64,000 nt of DNA from an uncultured Acidobacteriota bacterium (GTDB lineage: Bacteria; Acidobacteriota; UBA6911; RPQK01; JAPXNP01): positions 10,286 to 74,285 of the forward strand of contig CAVRSV010000020.1 in assembly GCA_963723965.1 (NCBI GenBank), in the 5' to 3' direction. Below, piece after piece: positions 23,261 to 50,157 of the stretch. A program made the translations under genes and the position numbers. The notes below the pieces were generated by a model. The model was not told where the DNA came from. It made no database searches and saw only the letters and a list, made by a program, of their open reading frames with translations. Numbering within the stretch: position 1 is the stretch's first letter; each line of letters opens with the position of its first letter.

Positions 23261-23374
23261 GTTCGATGAGACGGCCCCGAGTCCGTCGTTGCGCTTCCCT
23301 GGATGAGCGGTCAAACGACCGGCCTGGCGTGATAGCCTGCGCTTCGAGGACGTTGCGTGAACGGAGACCGCTCA

Positions 23375-23923
23375 ATGCTCGAGAAAGCCATTGAGATTGC
23401 CGCGCGGGCCCACACCGGTCAGGTCGACAAGGCTGGAGAGCCGTACATTCTTCATCCGTTGCGGGTGATGTCGCAGGTCACGGGCAGGCACGAGCGGATG
23501 GCCGCCGTGCTCCATGACGTGGTGGAGGACACCTCCGTCACGCTGGAAGATCTTCGCTCCCAGGGATTTCCGGAACCGGTGCTCGAGGCGGTCGAGGCTC
23601 TGACGAAGCGGGACGGCGAGACACGGATCGAAGCGGCCCGGCCGGCCCGTGCCAACCCAATTGCCCGAGAGGTCAAGATCGCCGACGTCCGGGACAACAT
23701 GGACCTGCGCCGGATTCCATATCCGACCGACGTCGACTTTGCCCGCCTGCGCGAGTATGAAGAAGTGCTCGAGCTCCTGAACCGGGCCCGAAACGGGCTG
23801 ATGCAACAAGCCCACGAAGGCCGATCCCCTCCGTCCCGTGGCTTCCATCGGCTCATGGAGGTCCCATCGGTCCCATCGGCTCATCAGTCCCAAGCCGTCC
23901 CAGGATTGGCCGGTCGCCCGTGA
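23375..23923 (+). CDS. stand-alone HD-domain (p)ppGpp-hydrolase-like protein (small alarmone hydrolase type)
   Basis: MLEKAIEIAARAHTGQVDKAGEPYILHPLRVM...AAVLHDVVEDTSVTLEDL... matches the RelA/SpoT hydrolase (Mesh1-like) motifs H..H, HD and ED. No synthetase domain is present. The last 40 or so codons run through the GTCCCAT repeat array. Confidence 0.75.
   Translation: MLEKAIEIAARAHTGQVDKAGEPYILHPLRVMSQVTGRHERMAAVLHDVVEDTSVTLEDLRSQGFPEPVLEAVEALTKRDGETRIEAARPARANPIAREVKIADVRDNMDLRRIPYPTDVDFARLREYEEVLELLNRARNGLMQQAHEGRSPPSRGFHRLMEVPSVPSAHQSQAVPGLAGRP
23841..23905. repeat. array of GTCCCAT/GTCCCAA motifs (right arm, inverted relative to 23174..23260)
   Basis: ccatcggctcatggaggtcccatcggtcccatcggctcatcagtcccaagccgtccc. 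The reverse complement of gtcccatcggtcccatcgg is ccgatgggaccgatgggac, which matches 23174-23197. Confidence 0.7.
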
Positions 23924-24136
23924 TCTCCACCCTGTCGCTTGCGCCACGCCGGGCTCCTCGACGCCGCTCACATCCTCCCCGACCGCAATCCCGAGGGGGT
24001 CCCCACGGTCGAAAACGGTTTAGCCCTCTGCAAACTCCACCACGCCGCGTTCGACCGCCACTTCCTGGGTATCACCCTCGACTCCATCGTCCAGGTCCGC
24101 GATTGGCGCAATTGGCGTAATTCGCTGGCTGTGTAG
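23924..24136 (+). pseudogene. HNH_2-type endonuclease fragment 1
   Basis: CRLRHAGLLDAAHILPDRNPEGVPTVENGLALCKLHHAAFDRHFLGI is the central HNH motif only. There is no N-terminal domain. It begins in frame immediately after the stop of the HD gene. Confidence 0.55.
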
Positions 24137-24171: not shown

Positions 24172-24671
24172 TCAGATCAGCTTCGGTCTGACGTCACGAA
24201 CGAGTCCCAGCAACAGGTGGTCCCAATCCGGTTCGAGGGGAACCATGAGATCCTGACGGTCCCAGACCAGCCCGTTCGACGAATCGGTGCTGCGATATGC
24301 CCAGTGTGTAATGCGCCACGACGTCGTCAGGTCGCAGACCACATCCCGGTCGCGGAGAAGCTCATCGACCAGAGTGCCGTCCTGCAAGTTACGGTCAATC
24401 CAGTGATCCAGGTGCCGACGCGAGGCAATCCGATCTCCCTTTGCGGAATTACAGGCGGCGTGAGCAAGCACGAAATTGTGCCCCAGGTTGACAGGATAGC
24501 GGGCCCACGGAATGAAGTGATCGACGTGAGCTGCAGAGGTGACCGGCTTCCTGCAGTAAAAGCACTCACCCTGCTGCAAGTCGCGCAGAACCGCGCGAAC
24601 CGCCCCTCATCCAACAGGCGCTGGATGTTGGTGAGAAACCGGATCTGCGATTCTGCGTCGATGGCTGACAT
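24172..24671 (-). pseudogene. HNH endonuclease, single frameshift in a C4/G4 run
   Basis: ORF 24172..24579 contains GECFYCRKPVTSAAHVDHFIPWARYPVNLGHNFVLAHAACNSAKGD (CxxC...H..H...N...CN HNH core). The ATG at 24671 gives MSAIDAESQIRFLTNIQRLLDEG in another frame. Adding one G to the run at 24603-24606 joins them into a 166-aa protein. The start lies 3 nt after the HIT stop. Confidence 0.7.
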
Positions 24672-24674
24672 GGC

Positions 24675-25076
24675 CTACCAGTAACGCACTTTCGCCGGGA
24701 TGACCCAACGCACGCCGCCGCGTGGATCTTCGACATCTCCGGTCCGCCGGGGAATCACATGAACGTGCGCATGCGCAATCGTCTGCCCGGCTGCTGTTCC
24801 ATCATTTACGCCGATGTTAAACCCGTCGGGTACTTCCTCCTCGGCCAGCTCCCGCCGGACGACACCAACCATCGCCCAGACAGCGACCCACTCCTCCTCA
24901 TTCAGTGTGAAGATGCTGGCAACATGTCGCCGGGGAACGACCAGCGTGTGCCCAGGGCTCACGGGAAAGCCGTCGCGCAAGGCAAGACATTCGGGCCCTG
25001 AGTGGACGATCCGAGCCGGATCGGGCTCACAGAAGGGGCAAGTGTCTGAGGTATTGACGGGTTCAGGCATCGACAA
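24675..25076 (-). CDS. HIT-family (histidine triad) nucleotide hydrolase/transferase
   Basis: 133 aa. It has CPFCEP, a GHTLVVPRRH-type fold and the catalytic triad motif HAHVHVIPR. Confidence 0.9.
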   Translation of the reverse strand: MSMPEPVNTSDTCPFCEPDPARIVHSGPECLALRDGFPVSPGHTLVVPRRHVASIFTLNEEEWVAVWAMVGVVRRELAEEEVPDGFNIGVNDGTAAGQTIAHAHVHVIPRRTGDVEDPRGGVRWVIPAKVRYW

Positions 25077-25234
25077 TGCTCCGCCCGCCGATGCTCACCC
25101 CAGGAATTCCCAGAGTCAACCCTGCTGTGTCACTTCGATTCAAAGCCAAGGCATCTCCAGCGGCTGAAGACCTCTCGGTGTGCAGCCACGCAAGACGCGA
25201 GATGGGGCCCGGCTCGGAGTGTCCGAAGGGACCG

Positions 25235-25864
25235 CTATTCCGAGCCGTCGCTCAACCAGCGCTGGACCTCGAGAAGGTACTCGGATACCTCCATTGTCTG
25301 GATGTCTTCTTTGGAGAACCCTTTCTGCTCGAGCCGCAGCTGCACATCAGCAACGAAATCGGAGAAGCGATAGTAGATTTCGGTCGGGCCGGCCAGGTCG
25401 GATTCCATCGTCGTGACCAGCCAGTTCCGCACCTCTCGAATGAGAGTCTGAACGTCGTCGTTGTGAGCCCGAATGTCGTTTCCCGAGAGGTCTGACAGGA
25501 CCTTCTGAAACCGGTACCTTTCAGTGTCCAACACCAAAGTCACTTTCCGTCGAAGGGAGTCACCCCCGAAATTGCGGCAACCCACGTCAATCCCCAACTC
25601 GAACGGGAGGTTGAAACGGGCGAGTTCGCCACGTCTCCGCGACTCCATTCGGGAAATGTCGTGGATGCTCCAGCGAGACGATCCGATGAGTTCCAGAATC
25701 TTGTGAATCCGGACTTCCCCGGAGTCGGCGCGTTCCAAGGCGATCCGGGGCCGAAGCCCGCAGTCGACGAGGGTGAACAGCAGGGCCTGGAGGAGGGGAA
25801 GGTACGTTTCGTCAAAAGGGCAGTTCACGAAAACGTTTTGTTCGAACCCCTCACCGTCAGTCAT
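25235..25864 (-). CDS. TIR-like / nucleoside 2-deoxyribosyltransferase-like (flavodoxin-fold) domain protein
   Basis: NVFVNCPFDETYLPLLQALLFTLVDCGLRPRIALE...IHKILELIGSSRWSIHDISR...RFNLPFELGI follows the strand-helix pattern of TIR-like/NDT-like domains. This call is by pattern only. The ATG at 25864 overlaps the DUF2188 stop (ATGACTGA). The track ORF extends to 25936. Confidence 0.45.
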   Translation of the reverse strand: MTDGEGFEQNVFVNCPFDETYLPLLQALLFTLVDCGLRPRIALERADSGEVRIHKILELIGSSRWSIHDISRMESRRRGELARFNLPFELGIDVGCRNFGGDSLRRKVTLVLDTERYRFQKVLSDLSGNDIRAHNDDVQTLIREVRNWLVTTMESDLAGPTEIYYRFSDFVADVQLRLEQKGFSKEDIQTMEVSEYLLEVQRWLSDGSE

Positions 25865-26111
25865 CGTCTCGTGAAACGACTTGGTACTGGCGCTGTATTC
25901 TGCCATCGGCCTTGTGCACGATGACTGAACCTCCACCCTTCTTTGTCACGGAATCCTTTGCCTTGGTGACCGCATCCTGTTTCTTTTCGAAGACGGCGCT
26001 GGCTCGTGTAGCGCCCTCACGCCGGACTGCCCAGCCGTCTTGCTTCGGGACGACGTGGATTCGTCTCCGAGACGACTTATCAGTCGACGTTGATGAAGCT
26101 CTTCGTGGCAT
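25857..26111 (-). CDS. DUF2188-domain small protein
   Basis: IHVVPKQDGWAVRREGATRASAVFEKKQDAVTKAKDSVTKKGGGSVIVHKADGRIQ matches the DUF2188 pattern (hV.p...GW.V..eG..ra...f.tq.eA...A......g.el.iH..dG.I). Confidence 0.7.
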   Translation of the reverse strand: MPRRASSTSTDKSSRRRIHVVPKQDGWAVRREGATRASAVFEKKQDAVTKAKDSVTKKGGGSVIVHKADGRIQRQYQVVSRDDD

Positions 26112-26223
26112 GATCTTCGAACCTCAGTCTATCCCATTCCGTTACCGGATGACACCAGTAATTACTCCTCTTGGGCCGGACGGTGCGGAGCACGGATCTT
26201 CCTTCCTCGAGTAGGTTCGATTC

Positions 26224-26841
26224 GTGAAAGTCGCCCTGAACGTCGTCACCGCCCCGGGCTACGACCGCAACGTCCTCCCCCAGCTCCTGAGAACCTGGTT
26301 CGGTCCCGACGCCGGCCTCCCCGGCACGAACCACACGGTCCGCTTCTCGCCCACGGACGCCGGTTGGGAGATGGAGCCGTCGAGAGAACAGCGCGACCGG
26401 CAACTCGAACTCTGGAAAGCCTATTCCCGGGAAGAGATCCCCGGCTTCTTCGGCGTCGAATTCAACCAAGGCAAATGGAACTCGGGCTTCATCACGATCC
26501 CGGGTCACATCTTCCTGCTCGTGACGCTCGAAAAGGACGACATGCAGGCCGACCACCGCTACACGGACCACTTCGAATCAGGCGACACCTTCGTCTGGCA
26601 AAGCCAGAACCAAACCAAACAAGACTCCAAGGACGGCCGAATGCTGAAGAACCACCAGGCGACCGGCGACACAGTCCACCTCTTCGTCCGCAAGACCAAG
26701 AAACGAGGCGGCCGAGCCGCCCCCTTCGTCTACTGCGGCCCCGTGGATTTCGAGTCGTGGGAAGGAGAGCAGCCGACCACGGTGATGTGGAGGCTGGGAG
26801 AATCCGTTCCACAGAGACTCGAATCACGATTCGGCATGTAA
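26224..26841 (+). CDS. stand-alone DUF3427-domain protein
   Basis: GTG start. YSREEIPGFFG...GHIFLLVTLEKDDMQADHRYTDHFESGDTFVWQSQNQT...VHLFVRKTKK...PFVYCGPV...PTTVMWRL matches DUF3427. That domain is normally the C-terminal domain of PLD-nuclease/SF2-helicase restriction-like proteins. The last four codons lie inside a repeat unit also found at 27696. Confidence 0.7.
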   Translation: MKVALNVVTAPGYDRNVLPQLLRTWFGPDAGLPGTNHTVRFSPTDAGWEMEPSREQRDRQLELWKAYSREEIPGFFGVEFNQGKWNSGFITIPGHIFLLVTLEKDDMQADHRYTDHFESGDTFVWQSQNQTKQDSKDGRMLKNHQATGDTVHLFVRKTKKRGGRAAPFVYCGPVDFESWEGEQPTTVMWRLGESVPQRLESRFGM

Positions 26842-26974
26842 TCGGGTCGGCCTTGCTCTTTCGGTCCCGGAAGGGGCCAGATTCCGATAGCCCGGGGTCA
26901 AGCCGAAGGCGCGATCCCGGGTTTGCGACCCAACGAGGAGAGACCGCCCCGGGCAGGGGCGGGATACGGCGGCC
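26826..26974 (+). repeat. REP-like unit, copy a
   Basis: acgattcggcat...ccggaaggggccagattccgatagcccggggtcaagccgaaggcgcgatcccggg...ccccgggcaggggcgggatacggcggcc. Related copies lie at 27584, 27696 and, inverted, at 27361. Confidence 0.8.
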
Positions 26975-27114
26975 GGCGCTCGGCGGCAATCTGGCCCCGT
27001 GACCGATCGGCCCAACGCAATCCCGACTGGTCCACTTGGACAATGGCCCATGACGGTTGTTCTCCCATCGGGATGGACTTTCCCCTATTCCTGGGCTTCC
27101 CTAAACTACACCCC

Positions 27115-27296
27115 ATGCCGCAATCATTCTCCTGCATTTGGATCCATCTAATTTTCTCGACCAAGGAACGCTACTGGACTCGGTCGAGCGGTACATAGAA
27201 AACCAGGAAGAACATCACCGCACGATGAGCTTCAAGGAGGAACTGATGAAGTTTCTCGACGAATACGAAATCGAATACGAGGAGGAATACCTTTAG
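27115..27296 (+). mobile_element. REP-associated tyrosine transposase (RAYT / IS200-like Y1) remnant with internal deletion
   Basis: The N-terminus MPQSFSCIWIHLIFSTKERY (frame 1) is fused out of frame to the C-terminus VERYIENQEEHHRTMSFKEELMKFLDEYEIEYEEEYL* (frame 0). The whole catalytic core (HUH, Tyr) is missing. Confidence 0.75.
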
Positions 27297-27360
27297 CGCA
27301 CGTCTCCGGCCGGGTTCAGTCAGCGAAGACGGAGGGCCGTGAGGTGAATGGGAGGACGTG

Positions 27361-27481
27361 GCCCGCCGTATCGCGCCCCTGCCCGGGGCGCCCAACGTGA
27401 AGGACGAACCTCAACCCGGGGTCGCTCTCTGCCTGCGGCTTCGCTTGACCCCGGGCTAACAGAATCCCGCCCCTTCCGGGG
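27361..27481 (-). repeat. REP-like unit, inverted copy
   Basis: gcccgccgtatcgcgcccctgcccggggcg...cttgaccccgggctaacagaatcccgccccttccgggg is the reverse complement of the unit at 26862-26974, with substitutions. Confidence 0.75.
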
Positions 27482-27583
27482 CTCCCCAATTGCCTTCGCA
27501 GTACACCACCCAAACGAACGATCTTCCCGGCCTGGGAATTGGCCCCCTTGGACCCTTGCGAATTCGCGCGACCCCCGTCAGAG

Positions 27584-27807
27584 GTCCCGGAGGGACCCGA
27601 TTCCGATAGCCTGGGGTCAAGCCGAAGGCGCGACCCCAGGTTCGCGACCGAACGATGAAAAGGGCGCCCCGGCGAGGGGCGCGATACGGTCGCCGACGAT
27701 TCGGCATTTAGGTTGGCCGGCCTTGCTCTCTCGGCACCGGAAGGGGCCAGATTCCGATAGCCCGGGGTCGAGCCGAAGGCACGATCCCGGGTCAGATTGA
27801 GCGACCA
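27584..27807 (+). repeat. REP-like units, tandem copies b and c
   Basis: Copy b is 27584-27694. Copy c is 27696-27807 and is truncated. Both are in the same orientation as copy a, and c again starts with acgattcggcat. Confidence 0.8.
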
Positions 27808-27884
27808 CCTCACGCCGCCAGCAACTCCCGAAACGACTTCAGAGATCGCTCTTGCTGATCCGGATTTCGGTAGCCGAACGGTAG

Positions 27885-28271
27885 AGCAGCCAGAATCAGC
27901 CGAACCTGCCGGCGGCCGGAGGTCACGGTGGCAATCGTGGCGGGAGATCGTTCGCCTCCTCCGTCACGAGAGAACACTCCCTCCCAGCACTGGAGGCGGC
28001 CCACATCCGACCCTATTCAGAAGGAGGCGAGCACCGGGTCTCGAACGGACTCCTCCTTCGGTCAGACATCCACCGTCTCTTGGACCAGGGCTACGTCACG
28101 GTCACCCCGGAACACCGATTCGAGGTCAGTCGGCGATTAAAGGAGGACTTTGAAAACGGCAAGTCCTACTATCCGCTCAACGGGAAGTTGATCATTCCGC
28201 CACAAGACAGACACGACTGGCCCGACCGGCGGGCACTCGAGTGGCATAACTCCGAGCGTTTCTTGGGGTAG
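27885..28271 (+). pseudogene. HNH_2-type endonuclease fragment 2 (C-terminal two thirds)
   Basis: An open frame without a start codon reads ...LEAAHIRPYSEGGEHRVSNGLLLRSDIHRLLDQGYVTVTPEHRFEVSRRLKEDFENGKSYYPLNGKLIIPP...*. The first start codon in frame is at 28080, so the N-terminal domain is absent. Confidence 0.6.
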
Positions 28272-40676: not shown

Positions 40677-40753
40677 TGGCGCGCCCGGCCCGACTCGAAC
40701 GGGCGACCTGCGGATTCGAAGTCCGACGCTCTATCCAACTGAGCTACGGGCGC
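40677..40753 (-). tRNA. tRNA-Arg (anticodon UCG)
   Basis: The reverse complement is GCGCCCG-UA-GCUC..GAGC-G-UCGGA-CUUCGAA-UCCGC-AGGUC-GCCCG-UUCGAGU-CGGGC-CGGGCGC-G-CCA. There is one 27-43 mismatch in the anticodon stem. Confidence 0.88.
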
Positions 40754-50079: not shown

Positions 50080-50157
50080 GGTGGGCGTAGCTCAGTTTGG
50101 TAGAGCACAGGGTTGTGGCCCCTGTGGCCGTGGGTTCAAGTCCCATCGCCCACCCCA
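50080..50157 (+). tRNA. tRNA-His (anticodon GUG)
   Basis: G(-1)-GUGGGCG-UA-GCUC..GAGC-A-CAGGG-UUGUGGC-CCCUG-UGGCC-GUGGG-UUCAAGU-CCCAU-CGCCCAC-C-CCA. The extra 5-prime G is typical of tRNA-His. Confidence 0.9.

Follow-up and report, generated by a model that had tools for sequence, protein, structure and literature searches.

The subject of this analysis is a block of five open reading frames (ORFs) at positions 24172 to 26841 of a 64,000-nucleotide (nt) stretch of DNA from an uncultured Acidobacteriota bacterium (GenBank assembly GCA_963723965.1, contig CAVRSV010000020.1, positions 10,286 to 74,285 of the forward strand), a stretch referred to throughout as the window. The original prediction described the block as a single candidate defence module, with four minus-strand genes (HNH, HIT, a gene like those of TIR proteins or nucleoside 2-deoxyribosyltransferases (NDTs), and DUF2188) and a DUF3427 gene transcribed divergently from them. 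The physical description holds: all five frames lie where they had been placed, and the HNH, HIT, DUF2188 and DUF3427 assignments are all borne out by Pfam. The stop codon (TGA) of the DUF2188 gene overlaps the ATG of the next gene, with an 8-nt overlap (ATGACTGA), only the letters GCC separate the HIT stop codon (TAG) from the ATG of the HNH frame, a spacing of 3 nt, and the divergent gap runs from 26112 to 26223 (112 nt). As had also been stated, no ATPase, helicase or methyltransferase is encoded in the block.

What these genes form is a patchwork and not one operon-encoded system. The block lies in a variable island of about 6 kb, decayed as originally described, with the gene for a DUF819 membrane protein at one end and that for a response regulator at the other. 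It very probably falls apart into three independent units: unit A (25235-26111), which is intact, unit B (24172-25076) and unit C (26404-26838). Units A and B are two unrelated two-gene cassettes that lie side by side, and unit C is a restriction-gene leftover beside them. The features of the block and of the surrounding island are collected in Table 1.

Table 1. Features of the block and of the island that contains it, in window coordinates
Feature	Position	Strand	Evidence
HNH_2 / phosphorothioate-DNA restriction endonuclease-like fragment	23939..24136	+	PF13391 2.2e-10; NF045808 positions 193-240/284
C-terminal part of HNH (HNH motif and C-terminal region), in another frame than the stub	24172..24603	-	PF01844 3.4e-7 on 24172-24579; tblastn
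N-terminal stub (25 codons) of long-form HNH, starting 3 nt past the HIT stop	24597..24671	-	tblastn
HIT family gene, intact, upstream member of the HIT-HNH pair	24675..25076	-	PF01230 2.2e-22
TIR-like (flavodoxin-fold) protein of 209 amino acids with C-terminal helical domain, downstream member of the intact pair (predicted fold)	25235..25864	-	AlphaFold2 model, Foldseek, family Pfam scan
DUF2188 gene (84 amino acids), upstream member of the intact pair	25857..26111	-	PF09954 4.5e-19
3' remnant of a large DUF3427 gene of helicase/PLD type (like Type IV restriction genes), inside ORF 26224-26841	26404..26838	+	PF11907 3.6e-26; PADLOC mREase_IV
Repeat-rich stretch closing the island	26826..27810	.	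direct families D1 and D2; inverted pairs I1-I4; 73-97-nt copies
Second HNH_2-like fragment	27990..28262	+	tblastn with an HNH_2-like protein from locus L158, E 4.6e-4; no Pfam match at E<=0.01

The division into units rests above all on synteny. Relatives of unit A were collected by scanning one genome per GTDB species, which gave at least 583 loci with the family of the 209-amino-acid (aa) protein, and synteny was counted on the best 80 of them. For the HNH family, 80 further loci (L084-L163) were drawn from metagenomes, and 83 were analysed in all. Each gene pair is syntenic in other genomes, DUF2188 with the TIR-like gene in 80 of 80 loci and HIT with HNH in 25 of the 33 long-form HNH loci that have room for a HIT gene. 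The two pairs never occur together: HIT and HNH are found in 0 of 80 loci of the DUF2188/209-aa pair, and DUF2188 and the 209-aa protein in 0 of 83 HNH-family loci, a result that removes the proposal of one module of four or five genes. Between the units no sigma-70-like promoter or terminator was recognized, an absence that carries no information in this type of organism.

The DUF2188 gene and its 209-aa partner

The intact cassette of unit A has relatives across a broad range of organisms. The best 80 loci come from Acidobacteriota, from Alpha-, Beta-, Gamma- and Deltaproteobacteria, and from Bacteroidota, Cyanobacteria, Chlorobi, Gemmatimonadota, Latescibacterota, Verrucomicrobiota, Halanaerobium, Atribacterota and Thermotogaceae, together with one archaeal metagenome-assembled genome. 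The DUF2188 gene lies directly upstream of the 209-aa family gene and on the same strand in 78 of these loci as judged by phmmer, and in all 80 as judged by BLAST clustering. No third conserved gene stands beside the pair in the 80 loci, whose remaining recurrent clusters consist of antisense shadow ORFs, and a DUF3427 protein is encoded nearby once, at a distance of 5 kb. About 13 codons into the 209-aa family protein lies an NCPFD motif, and the DUF2188 stop codon precedes this motif by 24-76 nt (median 40). Pairwise identities of the DUF2188 proteins follow those of their 209-aa partners (r=0.63, a value equalled in 0 of 999 Mantel permutations). The cassette is inherited as a unit across bacteria and is translationally coupled. 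Among family members lengthened at the N-terminus, a check for genuine fusions to DUF2188 turned up P0265 alone, which has the look of a read-through across a frameshift and not of a real fusion.

The pair is present on 17 large plasmids, always under the annotation 'hypothetical protein', and TniABQ adjoins it once; it was not found in the phage collection. With its variable context and its presence on plasmids, it shows the pattern of a scattered accessory cassette and not of a constant resident of defence islands. The defence-island setting seen in the window thus seems to be no general trait of the pair, whose flanks elsewhere are mostly housekeeping genes. On a Sphingomonas aliaeris plasmid (NZ_CP061036.1; L165:393-5609), a small ORF and the TIR-like gene form a pair directly 3' of Mu-transposase/TniB/TniQ, HU and serine protease genes, an arrangement that resembles transposon cargo.

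The 209-aa protein itself has no match in Pfam (E<=0.1), NCBIfam, PADLOC or the PDB sequences. Its close homologs number 435, with lengths of about 205-215 aa, and an exhaustive profile search for the family returned 3315 clusters (50% identity, E<=1e-3), of which 742 reach E<=1e-30; the protein is a member of a large family that has no Pfam model. In a model built with AlphaFold2 (AF2) from a 28-sequence alignment (predicted local distance difference test, pLDDT, 85; predicted template modelling score, pTM, 0.86), five beta-alpha units precede a C-terminal domain of helices, about 55 aa long. In Foldseek searches this model matched CheY receivers, the IL-1RAcP TIR, TIR-STING, the SPARTA TIR, an NDT and DNPH1 in the PDB, and NDTs, CMP hydrolase and one Cap12/Pycsar TIR protein in BFVD (E 1e-3 to 4e-2 over the two databases). 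When 150 diverse representatives of the family were scanned against Pfam, 28 gave sub-threshold matches to PF10137, the Cap12/Pycsar effector TIR family (best 4.7e-4), 5 matched PF01582, and every other Pfam family was matched by at most 2. Weak as these structural and sequence matches are, they are consistent, and they uphold the TIR/NDT-like fold of flavodoxin type that had been proposed for the protein.

Four residues do not vary among the 150 representatives: R52, N85, E89 and G91. The motif 'pRfNMPFELGldlG' of the family profile aligned to 'PRDNVVFEFGLFLG' of Cap12/TIR-STING 7UN8, and E89 falls on the Glu of the FEFG motif there; because the overall E-value is 2, this alignment is counted only at the level of the motif. 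As in the TIR superfamily, the predicted structure has a beta-alpha fold of flavodoxin type and, behind strand C, a glutamate that is conserved. The N-terminal part of the 209-aa protein is probably a divergent TIR-like domain, organised around the invariant R..N..E.G motif and nearest to the effector-type PF10137 family, and by inference E89 is its candidate catalytic residue. Two rare family members carry additional parts: P0240 (406 aa) has a weak Mrr_cat-like (PD-(D/E)xK) C-terminal extension, and P0365 (291 aa) has a partial canonical TIR_2 domain ahead of the family domain.

The upstream partner matches both models of the PADLOC candidate PDC-S16 (1.8e-16 and 1.2e-15), and Pfam finds no other domain in its 84 aa. 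A single-sequence AF2 model (pLDDT 79.5) has the order beta-beta-beta-alpha-beta-beta and shares its beta-beta-beta-alpha core order with the N-terminal antitoxin domain of HicB; a sequence search with the DUF2188 profile missed PDB 5JN6. A 2026 mSphere paper, relying on HHpred and structure, likens a DUF2188 protein to the N-terminal domain by which HicB neutralises its toxin, and regards the HicB-like part as a simplified RNase H-like beta-beta-beta-alpha core and a possible minimal antitoxin (PMC13621843). DUF2188 has also been linked to defence operons (10.1101/2022.04.27.489752). Lau et al., who credit Burroughs and Aravind (2020) with the defence link, report it from operons under CapH/CapP control, where nucleotide cyclases and a TIR protein that binds cyclic nucleoside monophosphates (cNMP) are its neighbours. 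For 33 canonical TIR proteins, Yirmiya et al. predict that the Thoeris effector is a DUF2188 protein (10.64898/2025.12.03.692087). DUF2188 therefore recurs beside enzymes of nucleotide signalling.

The HIT and HNH genes, the DUF3427 remnant and the island

Unit B derives from a different cassette. Its HIT gene has the intact AHAHVHVIP motif that had been noted, and its start is more likely the ATG at 25070, which gives a protein of 131 aa, the length also called on an independent contig. Homologs of the HNH protein come in two forms, a stand-alone form of about 220 aa and a form of about 350 aa with an N-terminal FxATYKFALLxALAD motif. Of the 83 HNH-family loci, 40 contain a HIT gene (E 1e-19 to 1e-53 against the HIT of the window), and in the 25 long-form loci counted above this gene lies immediately upstream of the long HNH gene, overlapping or abutting it. 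On Aromatoleum EbN1 plasmid 2 the two genes are annotated 'HIT family protein' and 'HNH endonuclease', overlap by 4 nt and lie between insertion sequence (IS) elements; elsewhere the cassette is likewise found on plasmids, between IS elements and beside BREX. Its true relatives make the window's HNH a member of a distinct family of about 350 aa that is paired with HIT or with an S-adenosylmethionine (SAM) methyltransferase. The HNH proteins of Septu (PtuB) and of retrons are different, as the window's HNH matches PtuB, PDC-M01B and Cas9 only at the HNH catalytic motif and no PtuA ATPase is present. Membership among PtuB/Septu, Cas9-like or retron HNH proteins was ruled out on these motif-only matches.

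The methyltransferase partner is seen on an Acinetobacter plasmid (NZ_CP090068.1; L170:5412-7008) and in one further locus (L153:992-2729), where a class I SAM-dependent methyltransferase of about 195-228 aa replaces HIT upstream of the long HNH gene and overlaps it. In Acinetobacter, BrxR and a BREX-1 system follow immediately downstream of the pair. The exchange of HIT for a methyltransferase suggests a protective or modifying enzyme coupled to a nuclease, and a protective enzyme paired with a nuclease is taken here as a lead on the function of the long-HNH cassettes.

The window's own copy is broken. When six full-length homologs (about 350 aa) were searched against the window by tblastn, their residues 1-25/27 mapped to 24671-24597 in frame -2, and their residues from about 217 to 350 mapped to 24603-24199 in frame -1. 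This split over two frames means that the N-terminal domain has lost about 190 codons (about 570 bp) and that the junction, at about 24597-24603, is out of frame; a direct micro-repeat, GCGGTTC, lies at the junction. The cassette found elsewhere has an HNH of about 350 aa with the FxATYKFALL domain directly downstream of HIT, whereas the window retains codons 1-25 and about 217-350 only. The original prediction had proposed that a 1-nt correction would restore the gene, but such a correction would yield a 166-aa protein that still lacks the N-terminal domain. With this loss and the junction out of frame, unit B is dead and HIT alone is intact.

Unit C is a fragment as well. The PF11907 match of ORF 26224-26841 covers profile positions 121-275 of 280 only, and its match to PADLOC mREase_IV covers positions 830-933 of 945, the C-terminal end only. 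About 145 residues of the ORF (from about 60 to 205) can be aligned with residues 804-946 of one protein (949 aa) and 971-1105 of another (1112 aa), the full-size relatives being helicase-DUF3427 proteins of 950-1100 aa, and the first 60 or so residues match nothing. The ORF is therefore no stand-alone DUF3427 gene, as had been supposed, since only its last 145 or so residues match, and they match the C-terminus of far larger proteins. Compared with Type IV restriction enzymes that carry DUF3427 (mREase_IV), the remnant matches the C-terminus and lacks the full architecture of PLD/helicase plus DUF3427; no other pieces of a helicase/PLD-DUF3427 gene were found within the 64 kb. That the HNH gene has suffered a deletion and the DUF3427 gene a truncation is, jointly, very likely. 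In two metagenomic loci (L116:168-4821 and L150:1154-3416) and in one Pseudoalteromonas replicon (NZ_CP077771.1; L168:6989-11233), HIT-HNH or the long HNH adjoins a helicase-DUF3427 gene of about 1050 aa, and in three more loci such a gene lies within about 7 kb. The DUF3427 remnant and the HIT gene with its deleted HNH may be relics of one older defence locus.

Two other accounts of the block have to be weighed at this point. The first is the original one, in which HNH, HIT, the TIR-like protein and DUF2188, with or without the divergent DUF3427, form one compact defence system where a nucleotide enzyme, a nuclease and a TIR-like protein cooperate. Co-directional and tightly packed genes are what such a system would show, the HIT protein ThsC accompanies 2.4% of Thoeris (TIR) systems (PADLOC 2021 paper, PMC8565338), the HIT of the window matches the ThsC model (1.2e-12), and the adjacency of the 209-aa gene and HIT is repeated on an independent contig from another sequencing run. 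Set against this are the absence of any co-occurrence over 80 + 83 related loci, the 158-nt gap between the TIR-like stop and the HIT start, the reduction of HNH to a deletion remnant and of DUF3427 to a 3' fragment, and the fact that HIT has another, strongly conserved partner in the long HNH. Type II Thoeris (ThsA/ThsB/ThsC-HIT) fits no better: the HIT match covers part of the ThsC2 model, and ThsA is missing. A ThsC-like role for HIT alongside the TIR-like gene was ruled out, as HIT occurs in 0 of the 80 other loci in which the TIR-like family is found. Synteny has by now largely refuted a single system, which is extremely improbable, and independent units remain the preferred account.

The second account concerns the deletion, which could be an assembly artefact or a minority allele in an organism that has a functional HIT-HNH cassette. 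The independent contig just mentioned (Logan contig L171, run ERR11523667) is 99.94% identical to window positions 26259-24596; it ends (1589-1664) exactly at the HNH junction (24596) and has a G-to-A mismatch 5 nt from its end. An assembly join or branch, or heterogeneity between alleles, may exist at the junction, and this tells against the deletion. A stop at the junction with a mismatch close by is what a branch in an assembly graph would be expected to leave, and the micro-repeat at the same place points in that direction too. In the window, however, the sequence is continuous through the junction, degraded HIT-HNH loci are known elsewhere (L092, L095), and the island around HNH is full of gene fragments. 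An artefact or a minority allele is on this evidence unlikely, and a real deletion is preferred.

The rest of the island is of a similar kind. Two HNH_2 fragments flank the block, as had been reported, the second at about the limits given in Table 1. A dead REP/RAYT locus had also been proposed; the repeats are there, in three direct copies of a 73-nt element, one 97-nt pair and several inverted copies, and the RAYT gene was not confirmed by Pfam. The short ORFs between the repeats (26923-27198 and 27138-27296) have no Pfam match. An ORF at 23357-23923 (188 aa) matches RelA/SpoT-type HD hydrolases in its first 100 or so residues only (HD_4 4.7e-9; TIGR00691 positions 1-81), and its C-terminal third has no HD, Pfam or NCBIfam match. 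The window holds three tRNA genes (1980-2053 and 40680-40753 on the minus strand, 50081-50154 on the plus strand). None of them adjoins the island (about 22.8-28.7 kb), which therefore has no obvious tRNA-linked integration site.

Possible functions of the DUF2188/TIR-like pair

Unit A may be a toxin-antitoxin-like or abortive-infection pair, a tentative proposal that is less secure than the division of the block. The TIR-like 209-aa protein would be a putative N-glycosidase that destroys NAD+ or a nucleotide. DUF2188, with its minimal HicB-like antitoxin fold, would bind this enzyme and hold it inactive, and stress or infection would release the enzyme. Taken as a whole, with the confidence in all its steps blended, the explanation given here for the block is assigned a probability of roughly 0.55.

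The closest relatives of the proposed enzyme among known systems are the Cap12/PycTIR-type TIR NADase effectors (PF10137) of CBASS and Pycsar. These have the fold class predicted for the 209-aa protein and, like its family, conserve 'R-x-N-x-x-F-E-x-G' where the helix that follows strand 3 begins; theirs is also the only Pfam family that the 209-aa family touches repeatedly, never at threshold. They differ in their fused sensors, since the 209-aa protein has no SAVED, STING or cNMP sensor and carries the C-terminal helical domain instead, and in their partner, which is here the small DUF2188 protein and not a cyclase; no CD-NTase or cyclase lies nearby. The predicted DUF2188-type Thoeris systems (Yirmiya et al. 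2025, 10.64898/2025.12.03.692087) also consist of two genes, one of the TIR class and one for DUF2188. Their TIRs, however, are canonical TIR_2 proteins from clusters enriched in defence islands, whereas the 209-aa protein has no profile similarity to them and no Pfam annotation, and its family, judged from the flanks, would presumably fail the defence-score filter of that study. The ThsB-type TIR and the effector with a signal-binding or killing domain that characterize Thoeris are not found in the pair, and no SIR2/SLOG, Macro or transmembrane effector is present among its conserved neighbours in the 80 loci.

As two small, adjacent, co-directional and coupled genes that are inherited together, the pair has the organization of a type II toxin-antitoxin system. 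HicAB and other type II pairs are likewise small, adjacent, co-directional and overlapping, and are scattered over plasmids and mobile elements in variable contexts, and DUF2188, the small partner here, has a predicted beta-beta-beta-alpha fold like that of HicB-N (PMC13621843; single-sequence model). The differences are a TIR-like putative toxin, a DUF2188 without a helix-turn-helix (HTH) or ribbon-helix-helix (RHH) domain, and an order, small partner first, that is opposite to typical hicAB; no HicA (PF07927) is found in the block or among the conserved neighbours of the pair. PDC-S16, for its part, is a single-gene, untested candidate in PADLOC, whereas here DUF2188 always comes with the 209-aa partner, itself absent from PADLOC v2.

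Several observations weigh against a gated TIR-like toxin. The Foldseek matches of the 209-aa model are weak (E>=1e-3, TM-score 0.4-0.5), even though all belong to one fold class. None of the 150 representatives reaches the PF10137 gathering score of 24.7 bits, so that the TIR assignment rests on sub-threshold matches, and hhalign found no similarity between the family profile and the canonical TIR alignments of Yirmiya et al. (Table S1). The single-sequence DUF2188 model has no significant PDB neighbour, a HicB-like antitoxin (3k6q) appearing only at E=2.3. Type II antitoxins typically carry a DNA-binding domain, and the single DUF2188 domain of about 60 aa has no HTH, RHH or AbrB match in Pfam. 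The median identity across phyla is 46% for the pair, an unusually high conservation. Its flanks in other genomes are mostly housekeeping genes (PGI, GlyRS, thymidylate synthase, enolase, transporters, sigma-54 activators), and PADLOC models are matched by only about 10 of 112 flanking genes (AbiO, Nhi, methyltransferases, capP, SoFic, AriA). Given such conservation and such flanks, a metabolic role also fits.

That role would be a housekeeping or accessory nucleotide enzyme, an NDT or a DNPH1/CMP-hydrolase-like N-glycosidase, with DUF2188 as a small regulatory subunit and no conflict system involved. NDT, DNPH1 and CMP hydrolase are indeed among the Foldseek matches, and the ELG motif of the family resembles the catalytic Glu motif of the NDT/DNPH1-type family. 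A metabolic pair would however sit oddly with the sparse and patchy distribution over phyla, the lack of conserved context, the occurrence on plasmids and as transposon-adjacent cargo, and the standing of DUF2188 as a PADLOC defence candidate; moreover, the NDT Pfam model is reached by no member of the family, against 28 of 150 that touch PF10137. It seems improbable. So does a Thoeris-like arrangement, in which the TIR-like protein would sense infection and make an NAD+-derived signal, and DUF2188 would be the effector or signal-binding partner. The canonical TIRs with a predicted DUF2188 effector (10.64898/2025.12.03.692087) speak for it, together with the reports of DUF2188 beside nucleotide cyclases and a cNMP-binding TIR protein. 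Yet the 84-aa protein has no recognisable killing or ligand-binding domain, the closest Pfam signal of its partner is to the effector-type NADase TIR and not to ThsB, the family profile is unlike the DUF2188-associated canonical TIRs, and the flanks are mostly non-defence genes. A toxin-like enzyme silenced by DUF2188 is thus kept as the favoured, if tentative, function of unit A.

The DUF2188/cryptic TIR-like pair is real, large as a family and uncharacterised, and is best filed with the TIR-based or toxin-antitoxin-like conflict modules. A bolder version, which is doubtful as it stands, would make it a new minimal system of immunity or of toxin-antitoxin type with a very wide distribution (583 or more species-representative genomes; 3315 protein clusters, 50% identity), in which an HicB-like protein of about 80 aa gates a Cap12-type TIR NADase with no cyclase or sensor. 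It would separately make HIT with the long HNH, where a small SAM methyltransferase can stand in for HIT, an uncharacterised system that joins modification or immunity to a nuclease. Defence catalogues would then miss the pair because its TIR is invisible to Pfam and because it usually lies outside defence islands.

For annotation, the lesson of the block is that operon status does not follow from tight same-strand packing in a decaying island. HIT-HNH is a second conserved, mobile and uncharacterised cassette, and the exchange of its upstream partner (HIT or methyltransferase) suggests a testable logic of protection plus nuclease. If the gated NADase is real, a large unannotated TIR-like family would join the known repertoire, and DUF2188, a recurrent and unexplained resident of defence loci, would gain a concrete role. 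It would also mean that screens for enrichment in defence islands overlook conserved two-gene conflict modules that lie among housekeeping genes.

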